A stretch of 64,000 nucleotides of DNA. Origin: Eledone cirrhosa (taxonomy: Eukaryota). The stretch lies in NCBI GenBank assembly GCA_964016885.1, contig OZ024740.1, positions 247,752,001 through 247,816,000 of the forward strand, given 5' to 3'. The position numbers and the translations under genes are program-made. Every line of letters starts with the position of its first letter. The first letter of the stretch is position 1. Under the pieces are notes generated by a model. The model had not been told where the DNA came from. It saw only the letters and a list, made by a program, of their open reading frames with translations, and ran no database searches. Of this stretch, positions 12,042 through 59,900 are shown piece by piece.

Positions 12042-12137
12042 AAATAGACACACCTAAAGTTTCATATATCATCCAAAGCTTGAAACTAATGACATTAATT
12101 GTTTTTGTGTCTGTTTGTCATTATTATTATTATTATA

Positions 12138-20777: not shown

Positions 20778-22617
20778 CCCAACAAATAACGTTCGAAAAA
20801 ACCTGGGCCAATCTAAAAATTCCGAACGAAATATTAGCAGCAAGAGAGAGGTGAACACTGGTGTACAGATGCATTGCAGCAAACAGCAGATAACCGGAGT
20901 TGTTTACTGAACAACATATTGAAACTGCACTGAAATGGATCATGCCAGAGATCAATTATATAAAAAGAGACAGGTAATTCAGCAGTATATCTGTTCTTCT
21001 CAAGTAGGAATCCCTGGCTAAAAATACTCTATGTATCAGACCTATATGAAACGAAGGACTGTGAGGATTTGCATTCCCGAGATTCCAACAGTACTCAACC
21101 TGTATTGGCTCCTGTGATGCGTTAATCCAGAAGAGGACACCATCCTGAAGGCCTACAAAACACGGAGGAAACAGTGGTCGGGAACTAGCTTGGAGATCCT
21201 TCTCCAAACAAACCCTGAGAGTATTCAGAAGATCCCGATTCAATTCACCTTTCGCATGGGTCGGAAATACATGTGATAGTAGAAGAAAAAACCACGTTGT
21301 TTCCACTGTGGGCAGGCTAACCATTTAAGAAACTTCAGGCCTCAACAACAACTGCAACAACCAACAATAACAGCACCAACACCAAAATCTGCAGCAGCAG
21401 CCCTAGCGACAGCACCAGCAAAACCAACAATACCACCGGCAACGGCCCCAGAACCACCACAACCAACAACAAAACAACAACTACAAAGACCACCAAGACC
21501 AATCAAGGGGCACTCTAAAGAAGCGCTCCCACTCCCCCCTCTTCAACACACACAGACACGCACGCCCTCTCACATCTGACACAAGCACAGCAACCTCTTC
21601 ATCACTGAGCGGGGATGAGGAAGAACACCAAAAACCTAAAAAACAAAAAAGAAAGCACAAGAAATCTCAAACAGCAGACAGAGAAGACACACTCGTACCA
21701 AACACAGACACTCATACTACAACACCCATCCCCACAACAACACAGCCGTCAACACAAATCCCACCTTCATGCCGTCCAACAGCGTCGTCGGGCGCTTTGA
21801 CTGACGGACCAGTTAAATTGCTAGGGGTGTGGTTCGATCCGGACCTCCAGACGGACAAAAACTGGGACGAGGTGACGAGCAGGTGGCCTCTCTCATACAG
21901 AAATGGGTCGAGAGGAAGTTATCCCTGCATGGTCGAGCGGAAGTGGCGAACGCGTACATCACGTCCGTCATCTACTACCTACTACCACCTAAGCTTCGCC
22001 TGACTGCGCTGGAGAGTTTGCTCTTTCGCTTTTTTGTGGAAGGGATGTGCTCCGATGGTCAGGCGGTCCATCTGATGTCAACACCCGCTACGCGGAGAAC
22101 TGGGCTTGCCATGGCTAATGATGCGCAGACATGCGCTCAGGCTACGGCATCTCCACCTCTTCCGCGACGGTGATCAGGTGTGGTCACCGTTTGCTGACAC
22201 GGCTTTTCCCAGTTCGTCTCCTTTACGGAGCTGCAGTCCTGGGTGAAGAGACTAGAATGTCTTCAGGCGCTCACAGCCCTCGGCCAGTTGGGCGATGCAA
22301 TCAGTGGAAACTCCACCTTGGCGTTCTATAGAGGTTTAGTGGAAGGCGAAAACGACGACGTCCTTGTGGAAACTCTGGGTGTCGACGAAAGCCAACTAGT
22401 TATTCTCTTCGGTGGGTGGGGGATTTCGGTCCGGGGTCAATAGATAACTTCCAGAAGTCCCTGGCCTGGCAGTGTTACCGGGGAACGTTGCCAGTTCGAG
22501 ATAAACTTTACAGGCATGGAAGTGCCGTCATCCCGGCATGGCGACGAGACCGCCTTGCACGCACTCGTCCAGTATCTGGGCATCGCTGACTTGTGGGTTT
22601 ATGTCAAACATCTGTTA
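20778..22617 (+). mobile_element. Divergent ORF1 fragment (type E) followed by ORF2 3' fragments
   Basis: PDSIHLSHGSEIHVIVE...CFHCGQANHL aligns with the knuckle region of types A/B; ORF2 homology from ~21768 (DGPVKLLGVWF). Confidence 0.65.
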
Positions 22618-30731: not shown

Positions 30732-30765
<34 letters not shown>

Positions 30766-31176: not shown

Positions 31177-31207
<31 letters not shown>

Positions 31208-31254
31208 GCATGCTACTGTACGTCTGTATACATATATGTATGTACGTATACATA

Positions 31255-33868: not shown

Positions 33869-33875
<7 letters not shown>

Positions 33876-41483: not shown

Positions 41484-41837
41484 TATTATTGTTATTATTA
41501 CTGTTTATTGTTATACTGTGTGTGTCAAATTTGTTGATAAGGAATATACGACTGTTGTTTCTTGTGTTAAAACTTTGCTGCCAAACCAAAGAATATATTA
41601 ATAATAATAATAATTATTATTATTATTAATATTATTATTATTGAATGCCATGGTTGGCGGAGACTCGGCTCTGTAAGGTATAGTCATTTTTAACCGCTAT
41701 AACAATTGTAAATTGTTTAAAACTTTAACCCTCCTCCTTGTGAGAGGGGTCTTTCTGCCCGTTATTTGGCCCTTCGGGGTTAAATAACCGCTTATTGGGG
41801 ATTAGTGCCCAATATTCATTTTAAACCCCAAAAAAAC

Positions 41838-43953
41838 ATGGCTACAAAAAATAATTTTTACAAGTCACTCCAACTCATTCCGTCTTCTTCCTCAATCATC
41901 ACTACATCAGAGAGAAGATTGTCTCTCTCTACCTCCCTTCTCTAAATGTGTCTCTCTCCCTCCCTTCTCTTTCGCAAGCGACGCCAGTAAAGAAAAAGAA
42001 AAATATAGTTTCTGATAGTTTCCAAGAGCACGTGCATAACGTGGAACATTACTCCACGACGACGACAACGACGAAATATGTGTGCGGTAAATACGGAAAG
42101 CCATTTCATTCGTCTGACGTCATGAATAATAGCAGTAGCAGACCTAATAACAGCAGCAGCAGCAACAGTGACAGGGAAAACAATAGTAGCAGCCGCAACA
42201 GCAGCAGCAGCATAAACAACAACAACAGCAGCAGCAACAACAACAACAACCACAGCAACAGCGGCGGCGGCAGTCGTAGTACCAGCAGCAACAACAAAAG
42301 TAACAGCAGCTCTGACGACAACAACAACAACAACAACAAAGAAAAACCAATCTCGTTTGCAGGTATCGCAAAGAACCTGGATACCATCCTTATAATAAAT
42401 GAGGAATTACAGGAAGCAAAGAAGATGGTGACGAAAACCGGACACCGAGCAATCTGCAAGGCAGCCGAAAAATTGTTCGAAACCCAACAGCACTGTACGG
42501 TCACGTACTGTACAGTAAGCACAAAATCCCGTAGGGTTGAAAGAGCCACGGAGGCTCAAATACAAAAATCTTTGGGGTCTGTGTGGCAGCGGAAAACGGA
42601 TATCACCCGAGGCAAGAAATATGCCACCGTGGACGTGCTTTTTTCCACACCCCAGGAGGCAAAGGCTCAATCCTTAGTGACCCTAAGGAGCGAGGAAATG
42701 ATGTTGGTGCCCTCCTACTGCGGACAACAAATTGTGAGGGTCAAACTGACCCACGTCCCCCCGGGATGGCTCCTTCTTGGCTGGCCGCGTCTGTCCTTGT
42801 CGGAATCGAGGACAAAAAACTGTACTGCAAGTACAGAAAAAAGTAAGAGAAGATTGGGTCGGGACCTCCATTGAGATGTTAATCCAAACCAACCAGGGAT
42901 GCATCGAAGCTATCCCGGATGTGATAGACTTCGATAACAGCACTCAACAGCCCATAAGTGTTGAGGGCAAACGCCCGAAATGCTTTCACTGTGGATCGAA
43001 GACTCACCTCAGGGCCTTCTGCAATGAGAAGACCCTGAGAAAGGAGAAAACCCCCCTCCTTCCGAAACCGGCTCCACTGCTACCAGCAACAGGACAAGCG
43101 GCAAGCAGAAAGGATAGGTCCGTGGCACCCATACCCACGCCACGGAAATCAAGAACAGCAGCAGCAGTGGAAGTATTTACAACAACATCAATACCAACTG
43201 CAGCTGCAACAGAGACGCCACTGCAAACATCACCAACAACAACAAGTGAAAGAGTGGAGCTGGTACCCCTCCCCGACCTCACAGAATCGGACATGGAGTG
43301 TGAGGTAAGAGAGGGATGGCAAAAGGTCGCAAGTAGGCACAAACGCAGAAGCAGCGCATCGTCGCCTTCGAAAAGGGAGGAAAGAAATGAAAAAAGGCTA
43401 CTGCAAAGAGACTTACAGCAGCAATACCACCAACACCATCACCACCCACACTAGCACCACCATCACCACCGGTGGCAACACCACCGCAAACAACAACACC
43501 TTCAACACCAGCACCACAAGCACCAACATCGCAAACACAGCAACAAAACACACACACCCTGCAACAACGACAAGAAAATAGCAGAACCACAACCCACCCC
43601 CATAAAAACAAATGCACAGCAATAAATACACACAACAAGAAACTAATGACTTACATAATTGAACACACAGACATTTCACAGCACGACTACATAATACCAG
43701 ACCAATCAAAACACCAACGAACATAAGAGTGGTAAGAAAAGCACAGAAGCAATACACAAACATTAAAAGGAAATTCCCCAACGCAGTTGGTGATTTCAGA
43801 GACCTAGGAGGGACTCTCAACCAAAGAGTATATTTGGATATACTCACAGAAGAGCCGACAACCAGCCGAAGGGACGATTCAACGGTCCCTTCACCAGACG
43901 ATCAAGTGAAAAGGGATGGAGAAACCATCCTTTCTCTACGAGAAGTAAGGTAG
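41838..43953 (+). pseudogene. ORF1 type B, frameshifted
   Basis: Split ORFs homologous to 53841-55937. Confidence 0.9.
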
Positions 43954-43987
43954 GTGGTCTTTCCCATCTTTTCCACTCCATTTCAAC

Positions 43988-46900
43988 ATGAGCACACTCA
44001 GAATAGGCAGCATAAATACGCGTGGCCTGGGGTCATCATGGAAGCAGGGCCACCTGCTCAACGACCTCAGGTCACTAAAGATAGATGTAGTGGCCATCAG
44101 CGAGACCAGAATCTCCGAAACACGGACCTTCGCACCGATCTTCAGCGGCTACGATGTGTACGCATCTACCACACGTCTTGGATCGGGAGGAGGAGTTGCT
44201 GTGCTTTTTCGGAGAGGTTTAGTTCTCGCCATACGGGCCATCTTCCTGGACCCAGAGGGTAAGCTGGTGGTGCTGGACGTGACCAGCGGAGACGGGCAAG
44301 CTTTCAGGCTAGTGGCCGTCTATGACCCGACAGGAGCAGGGCGGCCTGATTTCTTCCGGCGTCTGGAGACCTTTCTTGAAACGTCCCGCTCTCTAGTGTT
44401 AGTGGGCAACTGGAACGGGATCTTAGATGCACGCTGGGATTGTGTGGGATTAGCGGATAGGGGAGGGGGTGCAAGAGCCTCACCAATCTGCTCAGGCGTT
44501 TTGAACTCTCTGACAGGTACCGATTGGATTTCCCGAATGTTCCAATGTGGATATGGACAAATCGCATAGGGTCATCCAGATCATATCTAGATAGAGTATT
44601 TTGTAGGGAAATAGATAAGTCTAGCATAGGCTGTCCACAATTCAAGATAGTCAGTTACACGGACCACAAATTCGTGATCTGTGTGCTTGACTTAGATAGG
44701 CCTCATAGACGAGGACCCGGCTACTGGAAGCTAAACGCGTCCTTACCAGCGAGCAAGGCCTACAGAGACCGGATTAGCGAACTAGTTAAGCGGGCGTTGA
44801 CGGGAGCCATCGTCAACAAGTGATGGTTTGCTCTGAAAAGAGTGATTAGAATAGAGTCCATTAGGTTTAGTAAGGCTTTAGCAATAGGGAAAAATAGAGC
44901 AGAGGGAGAACTAGTTAGAAAATTAGACGAGGCGCTTAGCAGAGGCATCGTGACCGACGTACTTGCGGCGAAATTGGCCCTTGACCAATTCTTCAATGCA
45001 AAGGACGAAGGCTGCGTTGTCAGAGCTAGGGTGCGTGCTCTCAGACACGAGGGGACGAAAGCCGTTCAATGGGCCCGAGTGGCGGAGGCGCGTCGTGGCA
45101 ACACAGCCACGATCCGGTCTTTGGTGAACTACGACGGGCGCATGCTACTCGATCCCGGGCAAATGTGTGAAGCTTTTCAGCGACACTTCGCTCAACTGTT
45201 CGGGGGCAGCGGCGGGCCGGATCGAGGGATGGACTTTAGTGTCTATCTCGACGGGCTGCCGCGGCCCTCGGCCACTGAGGCGGAGTGTTGCGAAAAGTCG
45301 ATAACAGCCGCTGAAGTACGGGAGGCAATGACTGGCTAAACAAGGGGTAAATCGCCTGGTTTGGATGGTCTTCCCTATGAACTTTACGTACAAATGCCAG
45401 ACTTGTTCGGAGGCCTCTTGGCGTACGTCTACTGCAACTGGCAACAGAACGGGAGAATTCCCAGCTCTGTGAGCCGAGAAGCGGTGGCGCTGCTGAGATA
45501 GAATCCGAACAAGGGGGATAACATAGATAATTTTAGGCCCATAACCCTGCTAAACACAGAGTTCAAGATTTTGGCCAAGGTGCTAGCAAAGAGGTTGGCG
45601 CTTGTCGTTGGTGGTCTGGTGGGAGAGGCGCAGACATGCGCCATTCCCGACAGATCCATCCACGACAACCTCCACCTCATGCGATACATCGTAGAGAGGG
45701 TAGCTAGGGAACCTGGCACGGGTGGGTCTTTGATAAATTTAGATCAGTCGAAAGCTTTCGATAGGGTCGACCATCGTTACCTAGCGGCAGTCTTGAGGGC
45801 GGCTGGATTTGGGCCCGTCTTCAGAGGCTGGATCGCTGCCATGCACGGCGACATCTGCTCTGTGGTGAGAGTGAACGGTCACCTTTCGGAACCGTTCAAC
45901 ATAATGCGCTCGGTCCGCCAAGGATGTCCCCTCTCGTCCCTCTTGTACGTATTGACTCTCGAGCCATTACTGCACAAACTGGAGACGTTGAGGGGGGGTC
46001 CCGCGCGAACTAGGATGCGGAAGATCCGTGTCAGCATATGCGGACGATGTCACCGTAGTGGTGTCGAACGCCAAACACATCGAGGCGATCGGCACTACAC
46101 TAAGAGAATACGAAGCGGTGACAGGAGCAATGATCAACCAGGAAAAGTCAGTGGGCCTGCAGCTCGGCACCTGGAGAGGCAGGTCCATGCCGTCTAACAG
46201 CGTCGTCGGGCGCTGGACGGACGGACCGGTTAAATTGCTAGGGGTCTGGTTCGGTCCGGACCTCCAGACGGACAAAAACTGGGACGAGGTGACGAGCAGG
46301 GTGGCTTCTCTCACCCAGAAATGGGCAGAGAGGAAGCTATCCCTGAAAGGTCGAGCGGAGGTGGCTAACGCGTACATCGCGTCCGTAATCTACTTCAGCA
46401 TGACCGTTGTACCTTGTCCTAAGCCCCGCCTGACTGTGCTGGAGCGTTTGCTCTTTCGCTTTTTTTGGAAGGGTCGCGCTCCGATAGTCAGGCAGTACAT
46501 CTGCTGTCAACACCCGCTACGTGGAGGGCTGGCCATGCCGTGGCTGATGATGCGCAGACACGCGCTCAGGCTACGACATCTCCACCTCTTCTTCGGCGGT
46601 GCTCAGGTGTGGTCGCCGTTTGCTAGACGCGTCTTTCCCCAGCTCGTCTACTTGACGGAGCTGCAGTCCTGGGTCAAGCAAAGACCGAGGGGGAGCTCTT
46701 GGAGACTGGAATGTCTTCAGGCGCTCACAGCCCTCGACCAATCAGGCAATGTGATCGGTGGAAACTCCACCTTGGCGTTCTATAGAGGATTAGTGGAGGG
46801 GAAGAGCGACGACGTACTTGGAGAAACTCTAGGCGGCGACGAAAATCAACTAGCCAATCTCTTCGGACGGACTTTCGGGCCGGGGCCTATGGACAACTTC

Positions 46901-47404
46901 CAGAAATCCCTGGCCTGGCAGTGTTACCGGGGAGCTTTGCCAGTTCGTGATAAACTCTACAGGCATGGAGGTGCCGTCAGCCGGGCATGTCCGAGATGCG
47001 CGCAGGGCGACGAAACCGTCCTGCACGCACTCGTCCAGTGTCCGAGCATTGCTGACTTGTGGGTTTATGTCGAACACCTGCTGTCACGCGTAGGACGGAT
47101 CCAGCTATCAGCTGAGTCCATCGTGATGATTGCCCCTCCCTCTTCCTTTAGCCGGGAAGGGCAGGCAGTTTTTATCTGTCTGGTGGCCATGGCGAAAGAG
47201 ATAGTATGGTGGACACGTTTGAAAGGGCTGAAGACGAGCACTTACCTCTTCGGTGATGCCCTGATTAACTTTTTCAAATTTCATTTGAAAAGGAAAATCA
47301 GGGTAGAGAGGGAACTGCTCTCTTCCCAGCATTTTGTTGAAAGATGGGTGAGAGAGGCAAGAATGGCCCTAGTGAATGGGCCTACTCTGAGTATGTGTCT
47401 GTAA
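43988..47404 (+). pseudogene. ORF2 (APE-RT-CCHC) with frameshifts and stops
   Basis: Pieces 43988-44569, 44524-44823, 44842-45339, 45571-46197, 46028-47404. Confidence 0.92.
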
Positions 47405-47648
47405 ATTAAAGGTGGAAAACTGGGAGAGGGCACTTGCCCTGGTGGTCAGGGTCACTGTGGTCTTTTAATGGGCTTTCTCCACAAATGTCCCTCGGAAGTC
47501 TCCTCCCTATTGGGGAATTTTTCTTTGTTATTTTATTACATCCTCTGTTTTTTTTTACACGCAGAAATGCCCATTTGTACCGTCCTGTGTTGTCCTGTAC
47601 TGTCCTTAATGTCTACTTTATGTAAACCCTTGTGGTCAATAAAGAAAA

Positions 47649-47706
<58 letters not shown>

Positions 47707-47914
47707 GGCGACCTACGTAGGAAATCGTATTATCGTGAGCTCCGCAAAGGTTTGTTATTTCCGTTTGTTTAAAAATTGCCATTTATGGAAAATTTTATTG
47801 TAAAATGTTTATAAGCACACATACATTGTTTTCCGAAAAGGACACCCAAAAAGATTGGGGCCTTGTGCCCAAAATTTTAACTTTTATTATTATCCAAAAA
47901 TTTCTTTGAAAAAA

Positions 47915-49885
47915 ATGGCTAATTCCCCTCTGCACGAAGCAGCTGAAAGCCTTCCTCACAAAATAACACCTCACACCGACACCACCATTGTAAATGTTAC
48001 TACGTTTGCCAACACAAAAAAAAATATAAGCAGTAGCAATATTTTAAATTTGTCTCAGGCAGACATTCATTTCCCGCCATTACCAATGACTGCAGGTGTT
48101 AAACCCTCCACCACCACCACCACCGCGACAACAGAAACAAAAGAAGAAAAAAATAAATTAACTCGTGACGTCGAAATGAAATCAAGCAAAATGGACTCTT
48201 CTCCACCAAAGACGACTGACGTCACCACCACCACAACTGAAAATAAAATTAATATTAACGATAGCAACAACAACAACAATGACATTATAAAACCGACCCT
48301 CAGTTTCGCCATCGTAGCAAAACAATTCGAAGCGTTCACGGTAACTCAAGAAGATTTAGAAAATGCCAAACAAATGGTAAAGAAAGATGGGTACAGGGTC
48401 AGCCTCACGCCCCCCCCCCCCACCCCCACCTAATAAAATGGAGCATCGGCGCCTGTGCACCGTGTCGTATAGAACAATAAATGTAAAATCGCGCCGAGTG
48501 GAACGGGCATCCGAGTCCCAAATCCAAAAAGCTTTGGGACATGTGTGGGCAAGAAAAACCCACATCAGACGTGGGCAAAAGTATGGAACCGTGGATGTGT
48601 TCTTTGAAACACCAGAGGAGGCTAGAGAACACTCCATGGCCCCATTAAAAAGTGACGACCTCACACTCATCCCAAGCTATTGTGGCCAGAGACTCGTAAA
48701 GATCAGGGTGACCCACGTTCCACCGGCCATCGAAATTCCCTGGCTAATAGCGGCTGTCCTCGCCGGCATCGAAGCCAACACGAAAATAATAGCAGTAGCA
48801 AAAGACAAGCAGGAAAACTGGTCCGGATCTGGGATGGAGCTCCTGATCCAAGCGGACCAAAAAAGCATTGAGGAGATCCCAGAGGTAATAGACCTCACTG
48901 ACGGCAGCCACCTCACGGTAATTGTCGAGGGCAGAAGACCTAGGTGTGTCGTTTGTGGTGAAGGAACCCACCTAAGGGCTTTCTGCCCTCAGGCTAAAAG
49001 GTTGAGGCCACCTCTCCTACCCACCCCAGTGACACAACCATCAACACCACCAGTAGCAGAGATGGCAGCAACAACTGTAGCAGCAACAACAGAAGCAACT
49101 ATAACAGCAACAACCCCAGCAACAGTAGCAAAACCAACACCACTACCACCACCAGCAAAACCAACACCACCACCACCCAACGCTTCAGAACTAGCACCAG
49201 CGCCTACACCATCCACCACACCACAACCAAAACTAACGGCTGTGGAGGATTTTCCACTCCCCGGCCTATCACAACTGGAGACAGATTGTGACGACGAGGA
49301 GTGGGAAACGATATCCGGAAAAAAAAAAGAAACCAAAAAAGAAAAAATTCTCTTCCTTCCCCCTCCAAAAACAAAATACAGAGGGAAACAAATAAACTAA
49401 GAAACAAAAAAGTTAGGACAGATATGCCACCATCCACACCAGCATCACCAACCCCATCAACCCAAACACCAACACCATCACCATCATTATCCCCAGCACC
49501 ACAATCACCTACACCACAAAAGTCACCAAAATGCGAAACAGAAACAAACCCACAACAAACGCATACAAAACAAAACAACCAAAACGATACACACTACACA
49601 TCATTAAATTTGAACAACAAGCAATTATTACACTACATCCAACACAACACCAGCATCACAGAAAAAGACTACACAACAACCCCAAAATTCACACCACCTC
49701 CACACATACAAATCACTCGCATCACACAGAAAACGTACATGACACTAAAACAAAAATTCCCCAAAGACATCGGAGACTTCCGACAAGCACTCTCCAGGAG
49801 GATTTATAAGGACATCCTTCCTGAGGAGGCCACAAGCAGTGAAAAGGATGGAAAAGCCGTCCTTCCCCTACGAGAAGTAAGGTAA
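47915..49885 (+). pseudogene. ORF1 type A (nucleic-acid binding, CCHC knuckle), two homopolymer frameshifts
   Basis: MANSPLHEAA...; CVVCGEGTHLRAFC; frame changes at the C-run ~48410-48430 and A-run ~49319-49328. Confidence 0.88.
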
Positions 49886-49919
49886 GTGGTCTTTCCCATC
49901 TTTTCCACTCCTTTTCAAC

Positions 49920-52900
49920 ATGACCTCACTCAGAATAGGCAGCATAAATGCGCGTGGCTTGGGGTGGTCATGGAAGCAGGGCCACCTGCTCAACGACCTC
50001 AGGTCACTAAACATAGATGTAGTGGCCATCAGCGAGACCAGAATCTCCGAAGCACAGGCTTTCGCACCGATCTTCGGCGGCTACGATGTGTACGCATCTC
50101 CCAGCCGTCCGGGATCGGGGGGAGGATTTGCTGTGCTTTTTCGGAGAGGTTTGGATCTTGCCATACGGGCCATCTTCCTGGACCCAGAAGGTAAGTTGGT
50201 GGTGCTGGACGTGACCAGCGGAGACGGGCAAGCTTTCAGGTTAGTGGCCGTCTATGCCCCGACAGGAGCAGGGCGGCCTGATTTCTTCCGGCGACTGGAG
50301 ACCTTTCTTGGAACGTCCCGCTCTTTAGTGTTAGTGGGCGACTGGAACGGGATCTTAGATGCACGCTGGGATTGTGTGGGATTAGTGGATAGGGAAGGAG
50401 GGTGCAAGAGTCTCACCAACCTGCTCAGACGTTTTGAACTGTCTGACAGGTACCGAATGGATTTCCCGAATGTACCAATGTGGACTTGGACAAATCGCAT
50501 AGGGTCATCCAGATCATATCTAGATAGAGTATTTTGTAGGGAAATAGATAGGTCTAGCATAGGCTGTCCACAATTCAAGATAGTCAGCTACACGGACCAC
50601 AAATTCGTGATCTGTGTGCTTGACTTAGATAGGCTTCATAGACGAGGACCCGGCTACTGGAAGTTAAACGCATCCTTACCAGCGCGCAAGGCCTACAGAG
50701 ACCGGATTAGCGAACTAGTTAAGCGGGCGTTCACGGGGGCCATCGTCAACAACAAGTGGTGGTTTGCTCTGAAAAGAGCAATTAGAATAGAGTCCATTAG
50801 GTTTAGTAAGACTTTAGCAATAGAGAAAAATAGAGCAGAGGGAGAATTAGTTAGAAAATTAGATGAGGCGCTTAGCAAAGGCATCGCGACCGACGTACTT
50901 GCGGCGAAATTGGCCCTTGACCAATTCTTCAATGCAAAGGACGAAGGCTGCGTTGTCAGAGCTAGGGTGCGTGCTCTCAGACACGAGGGGACGAAAGCCG
51001 TTCAATGGGCCCGAGTGGCGGAGGCGCGTCGTGGCAACAAAGCCAGGATCCGGTCTTTGGTGGACCACGACGGGCGCATGCTACTCGATCCCGGGCAAAT
51101 GTGTGAAGCTTTTCAGCGACACTTCGCTCAACTGTTCGGGGGCAGTGGCGTGCCGGATCGAGGGATGGACTTTAGTGTCTACCTCGACGGACTGCCGCGG
51201 CTTTCGGCCACTGAGGCGGAGTGTTGCGAAAAGCCGATAACAACCGCTGAAGTACGGGATGCAATGACTAGTTGCACAAGGGGTAAATCGCCTGGTTTGG
51301 ATGGTCTGCCCTATGAACTTTACGTACAAATGCCAAACTTGTTCGGAGGCCTCTTGGCGGACGTCTACTGCTTCTGGCAACAGAACGGGAGAATTCCCAG
51401 CTCTGTGAGCCGAGGAGCGGTTGCGCTGCTGAGAAAGGATCCGAAAAAGGGGGATAACATAGATAATTTTAGGCCCATAACTCTGCTAAACACAGAGTTC
51501 AAGATTTTGGCCAAGGTGCTAGCAAAGAAGTTGGCGCTTGTCGTTGGTGGTCTGGTGGGAGAGGCACAGACATGCGCCATTCCCGACAGATCCATCCACG
51601 ACAACCTCCACCTCATGCGATACATCGTAGAGAGGGTAGCTAGGGAACCTGGCACGGGTGGGTCTTTTATCAATTTAGATCAGTCGAAAGCCTTCGATAG
51701 GGTCGACCATCGTTACCTAACGGCAGTCCTGAGGGCGGCTGGCTTTGGGCCCGTCTTCAGAGGCTGGATCGCTGCCATGCACAGCGACATCTGCTCTGTA
51801 GTGAGAGTGAACGGTCACCTTTCGGAACCGTTCAACATCATGCGCTCGGTCCGCCAAGGATGTCCCCTCTCGTCCCTATTGTACGTATTGACTCTCGAGC
51901 CATTACTGCACAAACTGGAGACGTTGAGGGGGTCCCGCGCGAACTAGGATGCGGAAGATCCGTGTCAGCATATGCGGACGATGTCACCGTAGTGGTGTCG
52001 AACGCCAAACACATCGAGGCGATCGGCACTACACTAAGAGAATACGAAGCGGTGACAGGAGCAATGATCAACCAGGAAAAGTCAGTGGGCCTGCAGCTCG
52101 GCACCTGGAGAGGCAGGTCCATGCCGTCCAACAGCGTCGTCGGGCGCTGGACGGACGGACCGGTTAAATTGCTAGGGGTCTGGTTCGGTCCAGACCTCCA
52201 GACGGACAAAAACTGGGACGAGGTGACGAGCAGGGTGGCTTCTCTCACCCAGAAATGGGCCGAGAGGAAGCTATCCCTGAAAGGTCGAGCGGAGGTGGCG
52301 AATGCGTACATCCCATCCGTCATCTACTACCGCCTGACCGTCGTACCTTGTCCTAAGCCCCGCCTGACTGCGCTGGAGCGTTTGCTCTTTCGCTTCTTGT
52401 GGAAGGGACGCGCTCCGATGGTCAGGCAGTCCATCTGCTGTCAACACCCGCTACGTGGAGGGCTGGGCATGCCGTGGCTGATGATGCGCAGACACGCGCT
52501 CAGGCTACGACATCTCCACCTCTTCCTCGACGGTGATCAGGTGTGGTCGCCGTTTGCAAGACACGTTTTTCCCCAGCTCGTCTCCTTGACGGAGCTGCAG
52601 TCCTGGGTCAAGCGAAGACTGAGAGGGAGCGCTTGGAGACTGGAATGTCTTCAGGCGCTCACAGCCCTCGACCAATCGGGCAATGTGATCGGTGGAAACT
52701 CCACCTTGGCGTTCTATAGGGGATTAGTGGAGGGGAAGAGCGACGACGTACTTGGAGAAACTCTAGGCGTCGACGAAAATCAACTAGCCAATCTCTTCGG
52801 AAGGACTTTCGGGCCGGGGCCTATGGACAACTTCCAGAAATCCCTGGCCTGGCAGTGCTACCGAGGAGCTTTGCCAGTTCGGGATAAACTCTACAGGCAT

Positions 52901-53338
52901 GGAGGTGCCGTCAGCCGGGCATGTCCGAGATGCGCGCAGGGCGACGAAACCGTCCTGCACGCACTCGTCCAGTGTCCGAGCATTGCTGACTTGTGGGTTT
53001 ATGTCGAACACCTGCTGTCACGTGTAGGACGGATCCAGCTATCAGCTGAGTCCATCGTGAGGATTGCCCCGCCCCCTTCCTTTAGCCTGGAAGGGCAGGC
53101 AGTTTTTATCTGTCTGGTGGCCATGGCGAAAGAGATAGTATGGTGGACACGTTTGAAAGGGCTGAAGACGAGCACTTACCTCTTCGGTGATGCCCTGATT
53201 AACTTTTTCAAATTTCATTTGAAAAGGAAAATCAGGGTAGAGAGGGAAGTGCTCTCTTCCCAGCATTTTGTTGAAAGATGGGTGAGAGAAGCAAGTATGG
53301 CCCGAATGAATGGGCCTTCTCTGAGTATGTGTCTGTAA
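49920..53338 (+). pseudogene. ORF2 with a single frameshift in a G-run (~51930)
   Basis: ORFs 49920-51947 and 51860-53338 together match 55973-59392. Confidence 0.92.
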
Positions 53339-53580
53339 ATTAAAGGTGGAAAACTGGGAGAGGGCACTTGCCCTGGTGGTCAGGGCCACTGTGGTCTTTT
53401 AATGGGCTTTCTCCACAAATGTCCCTTGGAAGTCTCCCCCCTATTGGGGAATTTTTCTTTGTTATTTCATTTCAACCTCTGTTTTTTTACACGCAGAAAT
53501 GCCCATTTGTACCGTCCTGTATTGTCCTGTACTGTCCTTAATGTCTACTTTATGTGAACCCTTGTGGTTAATAAAGAAAA

Positions 53581-53626
<46 letters not shown>

Positions 53627-53840
53627 GAATGCCATGGTTGACGGAGGCTCGGCTCTGTAAGGTATAGTAATTTTTAACCGTTAAAACAATTGTAAATTGT
53701 TTAAAACTTGAACCAAATTGTTGATAAAGACACCCTCCTCCTCGTGAGAGGGGTCTTTCTGTCCGTTATTTGGCCCTTCGGGGCTAAATAACCAGTTATT
53801 GGGGTTTTGAACCCAATATTCATTTTAAACAAAAAACAAC

Positions 53841-55937
53841 ATGGCTACGAAAAAGAAATTTCATACGTCACTCCCACTCATTCCGTCTTCTTCTTCCTCA
53901 ATCATCACTACAGCAGAGAGAAGATTGTCTCTCTCCCTCCCTTCTTTAAATGTGTCTCTCTCCCTCCCTTCTCTTTCGCAAGTGACGAAAGAAAAGAAAA
54001 GTCTCGTGCAAAGCGTGCAAAGTTTTTCCACGACGACGACGACAGCGACGAAACAGGTGTGCGGGAAATACGAAAACCCAGTTCATTCGTCTGACGTCAG
54101 GAATAATAGCAGTAGCAGCCGTAATAACAACAGCAACAGTGACAATGAAAACAACAGTAGCAGCCGCAACAGCATCACCAGCAGCATAAACAACAACAGC
54201 ATTAGCAGCAGCAACACCAACAACAACCACAGCAACAGCGGCGGAGGCAGTAGTCGTAGTACCTGCAGCAACAACAAAAGTACCAGCAGCTCTGACGACA
54301 ACAACAACAGCAGAGACAAACCAATCTCATTTGCAGGTATTGCGAAAAACTTGGAAACAATCCTCATAACAAATGAGGAATTAGAGGTAGCGAAGAAGAT
54401 GGTGACAAAGAACGGACACCGAGCAATCTGCAAGGCAGCGAAAAATTTTTTCGAAACCCAAGAGCAGTGTACGGTCACGTACCGTACAGTAAGTACAAAA
54501 TCCCGTAGGGTGGAAAGAGCCACAGAGGCCCAAATACAAAAAGCCTTGGGGTCTGTGTGGCAGAGGAAAACGCACATCACCCGAGGCAAAAAATACGCCA
54601 CCGTAGACGTACTTTTTGCCACACCCCAGGAGGCAAAGGCCCAATCAGTAGTGACCCTAAGGAGCGAGGAAATGGTGTTGGTGCCCTCCTACTGCGGGCA
54701 AAAAATTGTGAGGGTCAAACTGACCCACGTCCCCCCCGAAATGACCCCTTCTTGGCTGGCCGCGTCTGTCCTCGTCGGAATCGAGGACAAAACAACTGTA
54801 CTGCAAGTACAGAAAAAAGTAAGAGAAGATTGGGTCGGCTCCTCCATTGAGATGCTAATCCAAACCAACCAGGAGTGCATCGAAGCTATCCCGGATGTGA
54901 TAGACTTCGATAACGGCACTCAACTGCCCATAAGTGTTGAGGGCAAACGCCCGAAATGCTTTCGCTGTGGATCGAAGACTCACCTCAGGGCCTTCTGCAA
55001 CGAGAAGACCCTGAGAAAGGAGAAAACCCCCCTCCTTCCGAATCCGGCTCCACGGCTACCAGCAACAGGACAAGCGGCAACCAGGAACGATAGGTCCGTG
55101 GCACCCATACCCACTCCACGGAAATCAAAGACAGCAGCAGCAGTGGAAATATTAACAACAACAACAGCAATACCAAATGCAGCTGCAACAGAGACTCCAG
55201 TGCAAACATCACCAACAACAACAAGTGAAAGAGTGGAGCTGGTACCCCTCCCCGACCTTACAGAATCAGACATGGAGTGTGAGGTGGGAGAGGGATGGCA
55301 AAAGGTCGCAAGAAGGCACAAACGCAGAAGCAGCGCATCGTCGCCTTTGAAAAGGGAGGAAAGAAATGAGAAAAGGGTAAAGTCTACTGCAAAGAGACCC
55401 ACAGCAGCAACACCACCAACACCATCACCACCCACACCAGCACCACCATCACCACCGGCGACAACCCCACCGCCAACAACACCTTCAACACCACCACCAC
55501 AAGCACCAACATCGCAAACACAACAACAAAACACACACACCCAGCAACAACGACAAGAAAATAGCAGAACCACACCCCACCCCCAGAAAAACAAATGCAC
55601 GGCAATAAACACACACAACAAGAAACTAATGACTTACATAATTGAACACACAGACATTTCACAACAGGACTACATAATACCAGCACCAATCAAAACGCCA
55701 ACTAACATAAGACTGCTAAAAATAGCACAGAAACAATACACAAACATTAAAACGAAATTCCCCAACGCAGTTGGTGATTTCAGGGACCTAGGAGGAACCA
55801 TCAATCGAAGAGTATATTCAGACATTCTCTTAGAAGAGCCGACGACCAGCCGAAGGGACGATTCAACGGTCCCTTCACCAGACGATCAAGTGAAAAGGGA
55901 TGTAAAAACCATCCCTCCTCTACCAAAAGTACGGTAA
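53841..55937 (+). CDS. LINE ORF1 protein, 698 aa (S/N-rich N-terminus, putative RRM-like core, CCHC knuckle, P/T-rich linker)
   Basis: CFRCGSKTHLRAFC = CX2CX4HX4C; position upstream of ORF2. Confidence 0.9.
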   Translation: MATKKKFHTSLPLIPSSSSSIITTAERRLSLSLPSLNVSLSLPSLSQVTKEKKSLVQSVQSFSTTTTTATKQVCGKYENPVHSSDVRNNSSSSRNNNSNSDNENNSSSRNSITSSINNNSISSSNTNNNHSNSGGGSSRSTCSNNKSTSSSDDNNNSRDKPISFAGIAKNLETILITNEELEVAKKMVTKNGHRAICKAAKNFFETQEQCTVTYRTVSTKSRRVERATEAQIQKALGSVWQRKTHITRGKKYATVDVLFATPQEAKAQSVVTLRSEEMVLVPSYCGQKIVRVKLTHVPPEMTPSWLAASVLVGIEDKTTVLQVQKKVREDWVGSSIEMLIQTNQECIEAIPDVIDFDNGTQLPISVEGKRPKCFRCGSKTHLRAFCNEKTLRKEKTPLLPNPAPRLPATGQAATRNDRSVAPIPTPRKSKTAAAVEILTTTTAIPNAAATETPVQTSPTTTSERVELVPLPDLTESDMECEVGEGWQKVARRHKRRSSASSPLKREERNEKRVKSTAKRPTAATPPTPSPPTPAPPSPPATTPPPTTPSTPPPQAPTSQTQQQNTHTQQQRQENSRTTPHPQKNKCTAINTHNKKLMTYIIEHTDISQQDYIIPAPIKTPTNIRLLKIAQKQYTNIKTKFPNAVGDFRDLGGTINRRVYSDILLEEPTTSRRDDSTVPSPDDQVKRDVKTIPPLPKVR

Positions 55938-55972
55938 GTGGTCTTTCCCATCTTTTCCACTCTATTTTAAAC

Positions 55973-58900
55973 ATGACCTCACTCAGAATAGGCAGCATAA
56001 ATGCGCGTGGCTTGGGGTCGTCATGGAAGCAGGGTCACCTGCTCAACGACCTCAGGTCACTAAACATAGATGTAGTGGCCATCAGCGAGACCAGAATCTC
56101 CGAAGCACGGGCCTTCGCACCGATCTTCGGCGGCTACGATGTGTACGCATCTCCCAGCCGTCCTGGATCGGGTGGAGGAGTTGCTGTGCTTTTTCGGAGA
56201 GGTTTGGATCTCGCCATACGGGCCATCTTCCTGGACCCAGAGGGTAAGCTGGTGGTGCTGGACGTGACCAGCGGAGACGGGCAAGCTTTCAGGCTAGTGG
56301 CCGTCTATGCCCCGACAGGAGCAGGGCGGCCTGATTTCTTCCGGCGTCTGGAGACCTTTCTTGGAACGTCCCGCTCTTTAGTGTTAGTGGGCGACTGGAA
56401 CGGGATCTTAGATGCACGCTGGGACTGTGTGGGATTAGCGGATAGGGGTGGAGGGTGCAAGAGCCTCACCAACCTGCTCAGGCGTTTTGAACTGTCTGAC
56501 AGGTACCGATTGGATTTCCCGAATGTACCAATGTGGACTTGGACAAACCGCATAGGGTCATCCAGATCATATCTAGATAGAGTATTTTGTAGGGAAATAG
56601 ATAGGTCTAGCATAGGCTGTCCACAATTCAAGATAGTCAGCTACACGGACCACAAATTCGTGACCTGTGTGCTTGACTTAGATAGGCTTCATAGACAAGG
56701 ACCCGGCTACTGGAAGCTAAACGCGTCCTTACCAGCGCGCAAGGCCTACAGAGACCGGATTAGCGAACTAGTTAAGCGGGCGTTGACGGGGGCCATCGTC
56801 AACAACAAGTGGTGGTTTGCTCTGAAAAGAGCGATTAGAATAGAATCGATTAGGTTTAGTAAGGCTTTAGCAATAGAGAAAAATAGAGCAGAGGGAGAAC
56901 TAGTTAGAAAATTAGACGAGGCGCTTAGCAAAGGCATTGCGACCGACGTGCTTGCGGCGAAATTGGCCCTTGACCAATTCTTCAATGCAAAGCACGAAGG
57001 CTGCGTTGTCAGAGCTAGGGTGCGTGCTCTCAGACACGAGGGGACGAAAGCCGTTCAATGGGCCCGAGTGGCGGAGGCGCGTCGTGGCAACAAAGCCACG
57101 ATCCGGTCTTTGGTGGACCACGACGGGCGCATGCTACTCGATCCCGGGCAAATGTGTGAAACTTTTCAGCGACACTTCGCTCAGCTGTTCGGGGGCAGCG
57201 GGGGGCCGGGTAGAGGGATGGACTTTAGTGTCTACCTCGACGGACTGCCGCGGCTCTCGGCCACTGAGGCGAAGTGTTGCGAAAAGCCGATAACAGCCGC
57301 TGAAGTAAGGGAGGCAATGACTGGCTGCACAAGGGGTAAATCGCCTGGTTTGGATGGTCTGCCCTATGAACTTTACGTACAGATGCCAGACTTGTTCGGA
57401 GGCCTCTTAGCGGACGTCTACTGCAACTGGCAACAGAACGGGAGAATTCCCAGTTCTGTGAGCCGAGGAGCGGTGGCACTGCTGAGAAAGGATCCGAACA
57501 AGGGGGATAACATAGACAATTTCCGGCCCATAACTCTGCTAAACACAGAGTTTAAGATTTTGGCCAAGGTGCTAGCAAAGAGGTTGGCGCTTGTCGTTGG
57601 TGGTCTGGTGGGAGAGGCGCAGACATGCGCCATTCCCGACAGATCCATCCACGACAACCTCCACCTCATGCGATACATCGTAGAGAGGGTAGCTAGGGAA
57701 CCTGGCACGGGTGGGTCCTTGATCAATTTAGATCAGTCGAAAGCTTTCGATAGGGTCGACCATCGTTACCTAGCGGCAGTCCTGAGGGCGGCTGGCTTTG
57801 GGCCCGTCTTCAGAGGCTGGATCGCTGCCATGCACAGCGACATCTGCTCTGTGGTGAGAGTGAACGGTCACCTGTCGGAACCGTTCAACATCATGCGCTC
57901 GGTCCGCCAAGGATGTCCCCTCTCGTCCCTCTTGTACGTATTGACTCTCGAGCCATTACTGCACAAACTGGAGACGTTGAGGGGAGTCCCGCGCGAACTA
58001 GGATGCGGAAGATCCGTGTCAGCATATGCGGACGATGTCACCGTAGTGGTGTCGAACGCCAAACACATCGAGGCGATCGGCACTACACTAAGAGAATACG
58101 AAGCGGTGACAGGAGCAATGATCAACCAGGAAAAGTCAGTGGGCCTGCAGCTCGGCACCTGGAGAGGCAGGTCCATGCCGTCCAACAGCGTCGTCGGGCG
58201 CTGGACGGACGGACCGGTTAAATTGCTAGGGGTCTGGTTCGGTCCGGACCTCCAGACGGACAAAAACTGGGACGAGGTGACGAGCAGGGTGGCTTCTCTC
58301 ACCCAGAAATGGGCGGAGAGGAAGCTATCCCTGAAAGGTCGAGCGGAGGTGGCTAACGCGTACATCGCGTCTGTCATCTGCTACCGCCTAACCGTCGTAC
58401 CTTGTCCTAAGCCTCGCCTGACTGCGCTGGAGCGTTTGCTCTTTCGCTTTTTGTGGAAGGGACGTGCTCCGATGGTCAGGCGGTCCATCTGTTGTCAACA
58501 CCCGCTACGTGGAGGGCTGGGCATGCCGTGGCTGATGATGCGCAGGCACGCGCTCAGGCTACGACATCTCCACCTCTTCCTCGACGGTGATCAGGTGTGG
58601 TCGCCGTTTGCTAGACGCGTTTTTCCCCAGCTCGTTTCCTTGACGGAGCTGCAGTCCTGGGTCAAGCGAAGACCGAGAGGGAGCGCCTGGAGACTGGAAT
58701 GTCTTCAGGCGCTCACAGCCCTCGACCAATCGGGCAATGTGATCGGTGGAAACTCCACCTCGGCGTTCTATAGAGGATTAGTGGAGGGGAAGAGCGACGA
58801 CGTACTTGGGGAAACTCTAGGCGTCGACGAAAATCAACTAGCCAATCTCTTCGGAAGAACTTTCGGGCCAGGGCCTATGGACAACTTCCAGAAATCTCTG

Positions 58901-59392
58901 GCCTGGCAGTGCTACCGAGGAGCCTTGCCAGTTCGGGATAAACTCTACAGGCATGGAGGTGCCGTCAGCCGGGCATGTCCGAGATGCGCGCAGGGCGACG
59001 AAACCGTCCTGCACGCACTCGTCCAGTGTCCGAAAATTGCTGACTTGTGGGTTTATGTCGAACACCTGCTGTCGCGTTTAGGACGGATCCAGCTATCATC
59101 TGAGTCTATCGTGAGGATTGCCCCGCCCTCCTCATTTAGCCGGGAAGGGCAGGCAGTTTTTATCTGTCTGGTGGCCATGGCGAAAGAGATAGTATGGTGG
59201 ACACGTTTGAAAGGGCTGAAGACGAGCACTTACCTCTTCGGTGATGCTCTGATTGACTTTTTCAAATTTCATTTGAAAAGGAAAATCAGAGTAGAGAAGG
59301 AAGTGCTCTCTTCCCAGCATTTTGTTGAAAGATGGGTGAGAGAAGCAAGAATAGCCCGAGTGAATGGGCCGACTCTGAGTATATATCTGTAA
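55973..59392 (+). CDS. LINE ORF2 protein, 1139 aa: APE endonuclease, reverse transcriptase, C-terminal CCHC
   Basis: GSINARG, ISETR, GDWN, YLDRV, TDH; KSPGLDG, FRPITLLN, LDQSKAFDRVDH, QGCPLS, YADD; CPRC..ETVLHALVQC; WKLNASL typical of L1/Tx1. Confidence 0.97.
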   Translation: MTSLRIGSINARGLGSSWKQGHLLNDLRSLNIDVVAISETRISEARAFAPIFGGYDVYASPSRPGSGGGVAVLFRRGLDLAIRAIFLDPEGKLVVLDVTSGDGQAFRLVAVYAPTGAGRPDFFRRLETFLGTSRSLVLVGDWNGILDARWDCVGLADRGGGCKSLTNLLRRFELSDRYRLDFPNVPMWTWTNRIGSSRSYLDRVFCREIDRSSIGCPQFKIVSYTDHKFVTCVLDLDRLHRQGPGYWKLNASLPARKAYRDRISELVKRALTGAIVNNKWWFALKRAIRIESIRFSKALAIEKNRAEGELVRKLDEALSKGIATDVLAAKLALDQFFNAKHEGCVVRARVRALRHEGTKAVQWARVAEARRGNKATIRSLVDHDGRMLLDPGQMCETFQRHFAQLFGGSGGPGRGMDFSVYLDGLPRLSATEAKCCEKPITAAEVREAMTGCTRGKSPGLDGLPYELYVQMPDLFGGLLADVYCNWQQNGRIPSSVSRGAVALLRKDPNKGDNIDNFRPITLLNTEFKILAKVLAKRLALVVGGLVGEAQTCAIPDRSIHDNLHLMRYIVERVAREPGTGGSLINLDQSKAFDRVDHRYLAAVLRAAGFGPVFRGWIAAMHSDICSVVRVNGHLSEPFNIMRSVRQGCPLSSLLYVLTLEPLLHKLETLRGVPRELGCGRSVSAYADDVTVVVSNAKHIEAIGTTLREYEAVTGAMINQEKSVGLQLGTWRGRSMPSNSVVGRWTDGPVKLLGVWFGPDLQTDKNWDEVTSRVASLTQKWAERKLSLKGRAEVANAYIASVICYRLTVVPCPKPRLTALERLLFRFLWKGRAPMVRRSICCQHPLRGGLGMPWLMMRRHALRLRHLHLFLDGDQVWSPFARRVFPQLVSLTELQSWVKRRPRGSAWRLECLQALTALDQSGNVIGGNSTSAFYRGLVEGKSDDVLGETLGVDENQLANLFGRTFGPGPMDNFQKSLAWQCYRGALPVRDKLYRHGGAVSRACPRCAQGDETVLHALVQCPKIADLWVYVEHLLSRLGRIQLSSESIVRIAPPSSFSREGQAVFICLVAMAKEIVWWTRLKGLKTSTYLFGDALIDFFKFHLKRKIRVEKEVLSSQHFVERWVREARIARVNGPTLSIYL

Positions 59393-59653
59393 ACTAAAGG
59401 TGGAAAACTGGGAGAGGGCACTTGCCTTGGTGGTCAGGGTCATTGTGGCTTTTTACTGGGCTTTCTCCACAAATGTCCCTCCGAAGTCTCCCCCCTATTG
59501 GGGAATTTTTCATTGTTATTTTCATTGTTATTTTTGTTACATCCTCTGTTTTTGTTTTTTTTACACGCAGAAATGCCCATTTGTACCGTCCTGCATTGTC
59601 CTGCACTGTCCTTAATGTCTACTTTATGTAAACCCTTGTGGTTAATAAAGAAA

Positions 59654-59705
<52 letters not shown>

Positions 59706-59706
<1 letters not shown>

Positions 59707-59900
59707 AGGGCGGTGAATTGGCAGTATCGGTAGAGGGTTGGACGCCATGCTTTCTAGCATAGTTACGTCCCTTTACGGTTTGAGTTCAAATCCCGCTGAG
59801 GTTAACTTTGCCTATCATCCTTACGGTGTCGATAAAATAAAGTACCAGTAATGTACTGGGTAATTGCTGGCCTTGTGCCTAAAGTAGAAACAATTATTAT
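59706..59900 (+). mobile_element. Full-length SINE inserted at the end of the LINE tail
   Basis: A and B boxes; attattattataa on both sides (59695-59707, 59893-59905). Confidence 0.9.

Follow-up and report, generated by a model that had tools for sequence, protein, structure and literature searches.

The window analysed here (the whole stretch of 64,000 nt, or 64 kb, with all features on the + strand) contains three full-length L1/Tx1-type LINE copies arranged head to tail in the order B1-A2-B3 and linked by (ATT)n, in keeping with the original prediction of adjacent full-length copies of two types arrayed B-A-B. Copy 1 (B1, type B) lies at 41643..47649, immediately after an (AAT)n/(ATT)n tract (41599..41642), copy 2 (A2, type A) at 47707..53581 and copy 3 (B3, type B) at 53627..59655. 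The (ATT)n tracts after B1, A2 and B3 are 57, 45 and 48 nt long, respectively: the (ATT)19 at 47650..47706 and the (ATT)15 at 53582..53626 are each the tail of one copy and the 5' flank of the next, and copy 3 ends in the (ATT)16 at 59656..59703, beyond which lies a SINE-like repeat (the LINE and SINE tails show only a weak likeness, 33/2000 shuffles). B1 is likely the oldest of the three array copies, with several frameshifts and internal stops breaking both ORF1 (41838-43953) and ORF2 (43988-47404). A2 has a 5'UTR at 47707-47914, an ORF1 with frameshifts at 47915-49885 and an ORF2 at 49920-53338 with one frameshift, a 1-nt deletion near 51932, and B3 is the only full-length copy of the three in which ORF1 and ORF2 are both intact. 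Lesion load declines from B1 through A2 to B3, the pattern expected under serial insertion, and B1 and B3 must be separate insertions because they differ by 8%. We read no meaning into the B-A-B order, as alternation of three copies from two common types is expected in 1 in 4 cases by chance.

The element plan is ORF1, a spacer of about 35 nt, ORF2 and an (ATT)n tail, with two ORFs and without LTRs. In B3, ORF1 (53841..55937, 698 aa) runs from a low-complexity N-terminus through two predicted RRMs and one CCHC knuckle (about aa 160-400) and a Pro/Thr-rich linker to a conserved C-terminal domain, and ORF2 (55973..59392, 1139 aa) encodes an APE-type endonuclease, an RT and a zf-RVT (Pfam domains Exo_endo_phos, RVT_1 and zf-RVT). 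Among solved structures, ORF2 is closest to human L1 ORF2p (aa 5-854, E 2.5e-53), with R2 weaker at 1e-21. Having an APE, an RT, a C-terminal zinc-binding region, two ORFs and a simple-repeat tail, the family belongs to the L1 group (L1/Tx1). The Tx1 clade is recognised by a Type I ORF1 (RRM plus CCHC knuckle) and not Transposase_22 (PMC5203782), and structure prediction suggests that the ORF1 here is of this type: the RRM region was modelled with a pLDDT of 91 and gave tandem-RRM Foldseek matches at E about 2e-4, the CCHC pattern is present in the sequence itself with zf-CCHC found in homologues, and there was no match to Transposase_22. The ORF1 core gave no matches in protein searches based on words; a profile search retrieved 316 relatives, of which the best over the full core is 36% identical, and no RT or endonuclease was fused to ORF1 in the 21 of these that were scanned. 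A metagenome scan gave 80 distant loci (22-48% identity in the best segment), which were left out of all comparisons, and an Rfam search gave no match.

Elsewhere in the window we found a second type-A copy, 3'-truncated and preceded by (ATT)18 (A0, 9440..12042), a third type-A 5' fragment, deleted and preceded by an ATT tract (A', 14052..15987), and the deleted and rearranged fragments C, D and E; our comparisons are made with this sample of two B, three A and one each of C, D and E from a single 64-kb window. The cluster at 14-22.6 kb shows many deletions and one inversion between LINE copies. C (17353..20778) has an ORF1 that is sister to that of B and ends at a 9-of-9 splice-donor consensus (18885), and its own more distant ORF2 in pieces (81-88% nt identity to A/B, dS 0.28-0.67). 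D (16007..17284) comprises a distinct ORF1 C-terminus, the spacer and the first part of the endonuclease, and then a young A/B-like ORF2 from about 16550 (42/233 mismatches with B3 before 16550 and 42/734 after); this single degenerate copy is an independent mosaic with its breakpoint inside the endonuclease. E (20778..22614) has a distant ORF1 piece (37% aa identity to B) beside an ORF2 piece (87-88% nt identity to A/B, dS 0.31-0.33), with a large deletion between the two making up a pair of uncertain linkage. The suggestion that these three ORF1 variants occur with the same ORF2 lineage holds for D after about 16550, but not for C, E or the earlier part of D.

A2 and B3 have nearly the same ORF2 (96.1% aa and 96.5% nt identity over 1138 codons) and ORF1 cores which are only moderately similar (54.5% aa and 61.0% nt identity over 187 codons) with saturated synonymous sites, both as originally described. 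In 100-column windows identity is 36-72% to the end of ORF1, 77% in the window containing the join and 91-100% thereafter, except in the final 3'UTR window (75%). The change is an abrupt jump 47 nt before the end of ORF1, which is the stepwise rather than gradual profile anticipated. ORF1 core pS is 0.75-0.79 in all four A2/A0 by B1/B3 pairs and ORF2 dS is 0.08-0.10, and A2-B3 synonymous divergence is at least 16-fold higher in ORF1 (lower bound 1.56) than in ORF2 (0.095). As a rate control, ORF1 was just about 2-3 times above ORF2 for B1-B3 (0.19-0.27 vs 0.10) and B3-C (1.14 vs 0.55-0.61). The ORF1 N-termini, said not to align, are indeed barely alignable (an equal score was reached by 50/1000 shuffles). 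The 5'UTRs, of which the same was said, have a weak 83-column local match (1/1000 shuffles as good, though it is AT-rich and needs care), and a GGGG...CCCAA stem ahead of the ATG is common to all five intact 5'UTRs (its folding beats shuffles in B3 alone, z -2.8). Types A and B are thus homologous in both 5'UTR and ORF1, though diverged, and do not carry unrelated cassettes. ORF1 dN/dS is 0.19 for B1-B3 and 0.26 for A2-A0, and as this indicates purifying selection in both types, A and B have both been propagated. No positive selection was seen, and the evasion of silencing suggested as a possible purpose of the exchange is hypothetical.

Relationships among the types also differ between the two ORFs. 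Site patterns in A2, B3 and C place B with C in the ORF1 core (BC 126, AB 57, AC 46) and A with B in the three ORF2 blocks summed (AB 277, BC 25, AC 16), and from this flip we conclude that the recombination is real. The tree of the ORF1 C-terminus is ((B,C),(A,D)), supported at 98/97, and (C,D)|(A,B) is rejected by the AU test (p 0.023). In the ORF1 core C outside (A,B) was not rejected (AU p 0.086), and the trees for ORF2 have the form of unresolved stars (p 0.23, 0.53), so the A/B/C incongruence is a matter of distances and site counts. The abrupt step, the synonymous contrast and the site-pattern flip together uphold the central claim that a whole 5'UTR-ORF1 unit was joined to the ORF2 and 3'UTR of another lineage. 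It should be noted that ORF2 is not sorted by ORF1 type (private sites: B1 93, A2 71, B3 80) and that there are further divergence steps within A2-A0 and B3-B1 (0/500 permutations each); some ongoing exchange among copies is likely.

The join is located at 55890|55891 in B3 and 43906|43907 in B1. In B3 this places it 47 nt ahead of the final base of the ORF1 stop, close to the roughly 45 nt first proposed. In both copies the end of ORF1 is doubled. The B1 scar (43860..43953) consists of a C-like ORF1 end (43860-43906; 41/46 identical to C) and then an A-like ORF1 end (43907-43953; 44/46 columns identical to A0), and the B3 scar (55844..55937) of a C-like end (55844-55890), the join and an A-like end (55891-55937). 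The A-type tail inherited by B, which begins after a CAG, is found in A2 at 49840..49885. Segment 1 corresponds to the tail of C and segment 2 to those of A (0/2000 shuffles each), and segment 2 further shows homology with the tails of C and D (B1, 10 and 0 of 2000 shuffles; B3, 81 and 2), with the direct similarity between segments 1 and 2 not significant (138-190 of 2000 shuffles). There are 2 nt (AG) of microhomology to the left of the join and 0 to the right. The join is shared by B1 and B3 and must have spread after the event. Since a C-like ORF1 end is followed by the homologous end of A, B is the hybrid, and we are all but certain that it unites a C-related 5'UTR-ORF1 with the final 47 nt of ORF1 and the spacer, ORF2 and 3'UTR, all shared with A. 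The scar shows a one-way capture rather than the interchange between lineages first proposed, with an older 5'UTR-ORF1 placed onto a young ORF2. C is just a relative of B's donor (ORF1 dS 1.14), and we infer the donor sequence past the join. Both features by which Tf/Gf-type recombinants are recognised, discordant ancestry across the breakpoint and a breakpoint found in several copies, are seen in B. The last 40 columns, 88% identical between B and C compared with 48-85% upstream, might point to a still older swap here involving C and the donor of B, but we do not claim one as the best max-chi break is elsewhere (31/500 permutations).

The B join falls exactly on a splice-donor consensus and at the foot of a predicted long-range helix. 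In A2, the ORF1 stop with its donor consensus (9 of 9 at 49882) and the pyrimidine-rich spacer (49877..49937) are predicted to pair with the ORF2 end at 53314-53379 (-55 kcal/mol, the best of 515 windows). The C spacer pairs equally well with the A/B ORF2 end (predicted -50 to -53 kcal/mol), so the helix forces no lineage matching and the idea that a spacer is obliged to travel with its own 3'UTR is not supported. An in-frame ORF1-ORF2 fusion through a 52-67 nt intron was rejected, being in frame for A, B and D and not for C, and therefore not conserved.

All five intact 5' ends come within 3 nt after an ATT tract, and (ATT)n adjoins each of the three intact 3' ends; the 64 kb has 16 tracts of this kind. 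Microsatellite-targeting Tx1 elements are recognised by having >20% of flanks made up of one repeat type (PMC4494074), a share that is exceeded here in one window, although the 5' ATT tracts could have arisen during insertion rather than being pre-existing targets. The targeting elements described in the same source are Kibi with (TC)n, Koshi with (TTC)n and crocodilian elements with (TTCC)n/(TTTC)n; they are like our family in having an L1-type APE-RT ORF2 and a microsatellite at the element ends, and we liken them by these features alone. They differ in that the repeat here, (ATT)n, is the same as the element's own tail, so that copies stack (PMC4494074).

We propose that an RT copying a young A-lineage RNA jumped, at the 2-nt AG microhomology, to an older element present either as RNA or as a genomic copy, and that B likely arose once. 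The landing would have been on the first unpaired bases 5' of the predicted spacer/ORF2-end helix, and the hybrid, having retained a whole ORF1 and a whole ORF2, would then have spread alongside its A parent. Insertion into (ATT)n, the tails of the family's own copies included, may create mixed arrays and place partner templates side by side. The direction, in which a young 3' end recruits an older 5' end, may recur at a different site in D. Template switching is the likeliest of the routes considered. We put the chance of this exact mechanism at about even, and note that 2 nt of microhomology cannot separate it from splicing or DNA repair.

A route through splicing is possible but rather unlikely in our view: in a read-through RNA of a mixed array (or in trans), an upstream C-like ORF1-stop donor would have been joined to the downstream CAG of an A element, 42 nt ahead of that element's own donor, and the product retrotransposed to found B. 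B's C-likeness stops exactly at the donor of C, a canonical 9-of-9 in this relative of B's donor, and the A-likeness begins exactly after the CAG; a random join would fall on a donor in 2-4% of cases by a rough post hoc estimate. The consensus is matched at 8 or 9 of 9 positions at the ORF1 end in all six copies having that end, it is the sole such site in B1 and B3, and mixed head-to-tail arrays exist, as at this locus. However, the CAG is a poor acceptor (9/20 pyrimidines, three upstream AGs and rank 83 of 184 YAG sites in A2 by a crude score, with the rank-3 site 94 nt downstream), the donor motif also forms one arm of the predicted helix, a role that could account for its conservation without splicing, and no donor is implicated in the D breakpoint inside the endonuclease. 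Among precedents, splicing founded SVA_F1 and STK40-SVA (PMC6139936) and has been proposed for mRNA/LINE-1 chimeras (PMC13174262), which likewise acquired a new 5' end at splice-like sites and were then retrotransposed. Those cases capture host exons, whereas the captured piece here would be the promoter and entire ORF1 of another LINE, with splicing hypothetical (PMC6139936, PMC13174262). The more general idea, that this LINE group reshuffles by splicing through (ATT)n self-targeting, mixed arrays and read-through RNA in which the ORF1-stop donor is spliced to the next element, yielding a new active family that has the promoter and ORF1 of one lineage and the ORF2 of another, with B a fossil of such an event, seems to us similarly doubtful.

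We think it improbable that B was made at the DNA level, by joining a 5'-truncated young copy to a resident older copy (either by insertion into the end of ORF1 or by a deletion at microhomology between copies adjacent in tandem) with transcription from the older promoter. A deletion in an array that ran from the ORF1 end of the upstream copy to the ORF1 tail of the downstream one would yield an identical product, deletions and an inversion among copies abound at 14-22.6 kb, and such a mechanism has been proposed for Jockey-group ORF1 shuffling (PMC4120745); it nevertheless requires two competent neighbours and a join sparing both ORFs, insertion at the ORF1 end is at odds with the (ATT)n flanks at 5/5 ends, and recombination between genomic copies has been discounted for rodent L1 (PMC3600994).

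It is very unlikely that there was no swap, with A and B being old lineages whose ORF2 and 3'UTR were homogenised by gene conversion, or ORF1 simply evolving much faster. The 2-3 times greater divergence of ORF1 even within a type, the further steps inside A2-A0 and B3-B1 and the unsorted ORF2 private sites agree with this, but rate alone gives neither the at least 16-fold contrast nor the site-pattern flip, in-register conversion would leave no doubled ORF1 end, and as a sole cause it is already largely refuted. That the A/B junctions are repeat mis-joins is scarcely credible: repeat arrays assemble poorly and we saw no long read spanning this one, but the junctions recur in two B and two A window copies and in contigs of public runs X4 and X6, which answers the original concern over an assembly chimera for the junctions and not for the B-A-B order.

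Contigs span the B join in public runs X5 and X6, with X6 also having an A-type loose end at the join, and X4 has a B-type loose end and an A-type contig ending at the join; X4 and X6 are runs under other organism labels, and the presence of both junction types in these means that the junction was not created by chimeric assembly. The family itself is widespread: at least half of the sampled words are present in 11 of the 24 public runs listed. In X1 the summed contig depth on ORF2 was above that of both ORF1s, a depth that is no copy number. Matches in X20 (guessed RNA) and X22 (Hi-C, another organism label) were almost wholly low-complexity and have no bearing on expression or splicing.

The closest precedent is recombination in mouse L1, where L1MdTf and L1MdGf are described as recombinant families in a source that sets out three mechanisms proposed for new 5' ends (PMC3600994). 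There too the 5' part and ORF1 of one lineage sit on the ORF2 of another, with the families coexisting, an older 5' end was recruited by a young 3' end and template switching was proposed. The mouse breakpoints, however, are in register inside ORF2 and traceless, whereas here the end of ORF1 holds an out-of-register join and a doubled tail; the mouse lineages are a few million years apart with a very conserved ORF1 3' half, whereas the ORF1s here are 54% alike with saturated synonymous sites (PMC3600994). Horizontal ORF1 transfer in CR1/L2 elements is similar in that a whole ORF1 with two RRMs and CCHC moves and ORF2 is tree-like, but it was deduced from deep domain phylogeny without a junction, with unknown direction and in another superfamily, with three knuckles where there is one here (PMC4120745). 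The 13 recently active L1-Tx1 families of Octopus vulgaris (421 insertions) are likely of the same class and host group; the main text of that paper has no mention of ORF1, and its supplement may list this family (PMC13282606).

The origin of new 5' ends in LINEs is a long-standing question for which three models compete (PMC3600994), and the scar at the B join gives both the direction and the exact position of one such event, between ORF1s only 54% alike. Were splicing responsible, retrotransposons would recombine in a way which we did not find described in the literature searched. The family's wide distribution means that mapping its joins genome-wide could tell template switching, splicing and DNA recombination apart. 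The hybrid nature of B also suggests that in nature one ORF2 works with very different ORF1 proteins.

Self-comparison of the window resolved 41643–59655 into three head-to-tail elements of ~6 kb, the LINE copies B1 (41643–47649), A2 (47707–53581) and B3 (53627–59655), where the letter gives the type. Copies 1 and 3 can be aligned over their entire length (92.3%) and copy 2 aligns to them only from 49838 onward (95.5–95.6%); from its own 5' end onward, copy 2 matches A0, a 3'-truncated type-A copy at 9440–12042 (88.8%). Both frames are open in copy 3, and a domain scan found endonuclease, RT and zf-RVT domains in the 1139 aa ORF2, for which human L1 ORF2p was the top solved relative. The ORF1 core has a high-confidence predicted fold (mean pLDDT 91) which matched tandem-RRM proteins in structure comparison, and a CCHC knuckle can be read from the sequence downstream; this predicted combination indicates a Type I ORF1 (RRM plus CCHC), the kind tied to Tx1 (PMC5203782). 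ORF1 is under purifying selection within type A and within type B (codon comparison), and the three organism-named cluster representatives among ten proteins looked up were relatives of ORF1 in Octopus sinensis, O. vulgaris and O. bimaculoides, which makes an octopus the likely host.

We note that base composition splits sharply within 53627–59655, with an A-rich ORF1 (A 0.36–0.38) and an ORF2 of GC 0.54–0.55 whose CpG observed/expected ratio of ~0.9 implies little CpG decay. Type A ORF1 also carries a C-rich proline-coding run (48400–48430 and 10140–10190), missing in B and C, which is a frameshift hot spot, and ORF1 is broken in all three type-A copies of the window. Two ORF1 profile-search relatives, P0046 and P0048, contain 26 and 40 tandem CCHC knuckles resembling the one in ORF1, one being joined to an aquaporin-like piece, and are probably amplified LINE pieces or mispredictions.

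The A/B identity step is genuine and as abrupt as the original prediction had it, with A2 and B3 sharing 36–72% identity per 100-column window until the ORF1 end and 91–100% thereafter, except in the final window. Codon comparison gave 96.1% aa identity and dS 0.095 (0.076–0.121) for their ORF2s, and 54.5% aa identity for the ORF1 cores, where pS is saturated (0.75) and dS is at least 1.56. The corresponding dS values for ORF1 and ORF2 were 0.19–0.27 vs 0.10 between B1 and B3, and 1.14 vs 0.55–0.61 between B3 and the LINE fragment C (17353–20778). Amongst A2, B3 and C, shared sites in the ORF1 core numbered 126 for BC, 57 for AB and 46 for AC, and in three ORF2 blocks 277 for AB, 25 for BC and 16 for AC. 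In the proposed comparison of ORF1 and ORF2 trees, made with the window copies, both ORF1 trees gave (B,C) (support 89/96 for the core and 98/97 for the C-terminal domain), the AU tests on ORF1 were mixed (p 0.023 and p 0.086), and the ORF2 trees lacked resolution.

The A and B 5'UTRs had been described as unalignable, which we did not find, as weak 5'UTR homology and a common stem before the ATG make A and B diverged homologues rather than unrelated cassettes. Placing C, D (16007–17284) and E (20778–22614) on one ORF2 lineage also fails for C and E, whose ORF2s are older (dS 0.28–0.67), and holds for D only from ~16550, where it changes to the young ORF2 (0–1/500 permutations reach the signal); D represents a second and independent capture, though present as a single decayed copy. 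In the surrounding 14052–22614, remnants of five ORF1 types, nested and bearing deletions, are densely packed together with a short inverted piece (~17284–17352), and the cluster resembles an older array in decay.

Junction alignment revealed ~42 surplus bases at the type B ORF1 end. The 47 nt upstream of the join resemble the C ORF1 end (41/46 aligned in B1) and the 47 nt downstream resemble the A ORF1 end (44/46 columns, B1 vs A0), scores reached by 0/2000 shuffles in each case. The A-type tail shares homology with those of C and D, and type B appears to hold two versions of one terminal ORF1 segment in tandem (55844–55937 in B3); the two segments compared directly gave no significant score in a shuffle test. 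This doubling identifies B as the hybrid, whereas its partner A carries no scar; 2 nt at the join are common to both parents. No observation here points to a two-way exchange or to evasion of silencing.

Template switching is our preferred origin of the hybrid over splicing, DNA-level joining, conversion or rate, and artefact, and we give it an even chance. In six of six copies the ORF1 stop carries a donor consensus matched at 8 or 9 of 9 positions, which together with a CAG in the fifth codon of ORF2 brackets an intron-like spacer of 52–67 nt (49882–49933, 55934–55986, 43950–44001, 11598–11649, 16264–16330 and 18885–18938), whose removal is predicted to fuse ORF1 and ORF2 in frame in A, B and D and out of frame in C. 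The ORF2-end window was the top predicted spacer partner, 3.4 kb away, in A2 (49877–49937 with 53314–53379; 515 windows, -55 vs -37 kcal/mol for the best unrelated) and B3 (55929–55990 with 59368–59433; 529 windows, -50 vs -40 kcal/mol), and the predicted helix covers the donor motif and ORF2 ATG. An RT switching templates would land just 5' of this helix.

Splicing would explain why the C-likeness of B stops exactly at a perfect donor consensus and A-likeness starts after a CAG inside ORF1. However, this CAG is a poor acceptor, and pairing alone could conserve the donor motif; together with the expected landing site of a switching RT this lowers the odds, and we regard splicing as the join's origin as possible but doubtful. 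DNA-level joining is unlikely, and conversion or rate alone highly improbable; ORF1 evolves only 2–3 fold faster than ORF2 in same-family control pairs. An assembly artefact at the joins is scarcely credible: in contigs from seven public runs compared with both joins, the B join was spanned by one gap-free contig each in X5 and X6 and the A join by a short contig in X1, so that the junctions are not assembly error. X6 also had an A-type loose end at the join, X4 combined a loose end of type B with a type-A contig terminating at the join, no bridging piece was among the matches listed for X7, and X20 and X22 gave almost exclusively low-complexity matches; the organism labels of X4 and X6 differ from that of the best-matching run, itself maybe the source.

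All five intact 5' ends follow an ATT tract and all three intact 3' ends run into one, with 16 such tracts in the window. Microsatellite-targeting Tx1 families are already described (PMC4494074), and copies would stack because the tail is a likely target. Damage declines from copy 1 to copy 3, as serial insertion would produce, and the A/B alternation of the assembled array calls for no explanation in itself. Pieces of other LINEs lie on the minus strand at 3000–9400 and 12300–14000 (RT 8585–9445; zf-RVT 6146–6895). The ATT tracts preceding A0 and A', a deleted type-A 5' fragment (14052–15987), interrupt opposite-strand LINE sequence and may have been created on insertion. A SINE-like repeat of ~200 nt with an ATT tail (59704–59900, 12135–12338, 149–331, 5722–5847 and 26389–26565), without match in Rfam, begins directly after an ATT tract in two copies, and its 3' end is weakly like the LINE 3' end (33/2000 shuffles). 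Long inverted repeats around TA microsatellites (27078–27527, 30326–31250, 33869–34436 and 36407–36710) are possibly MITE-like elements.

The mouse Tf and Gf families combine an F-lineage ORF1 with an ORF2 derived mostly from the A lineage, and the paper describing them cites a rule by which older 5' ends are recruited by young 3' ends (PMC3600994). Whole-ORF1 transfer was inferred for CR1/L2 (PMC4120745), new 5'UTR recruitment is standard (PMC5381506), splice-founded elements are known (PMC6139936, PMC13174262, PMC5860796), and in O. vulgaris 13 L1-Tx1 families have recently been active (PMC13282606). Octopus LINE ORF1 capture and splice-made LINE–LINE hybrids were not found in the literature searched, which excluded most subscription journals and Repbase and is weak evidence of novelty; LINE reshuffling by splicing remains a tentative idea. 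Type B is a real recombinant LINE family and a variation on an already known process; what is notable is the depth of its ORF1 divergence, the scar that reveals the direction of capture, and a join at which the mechanism can be put to the test.
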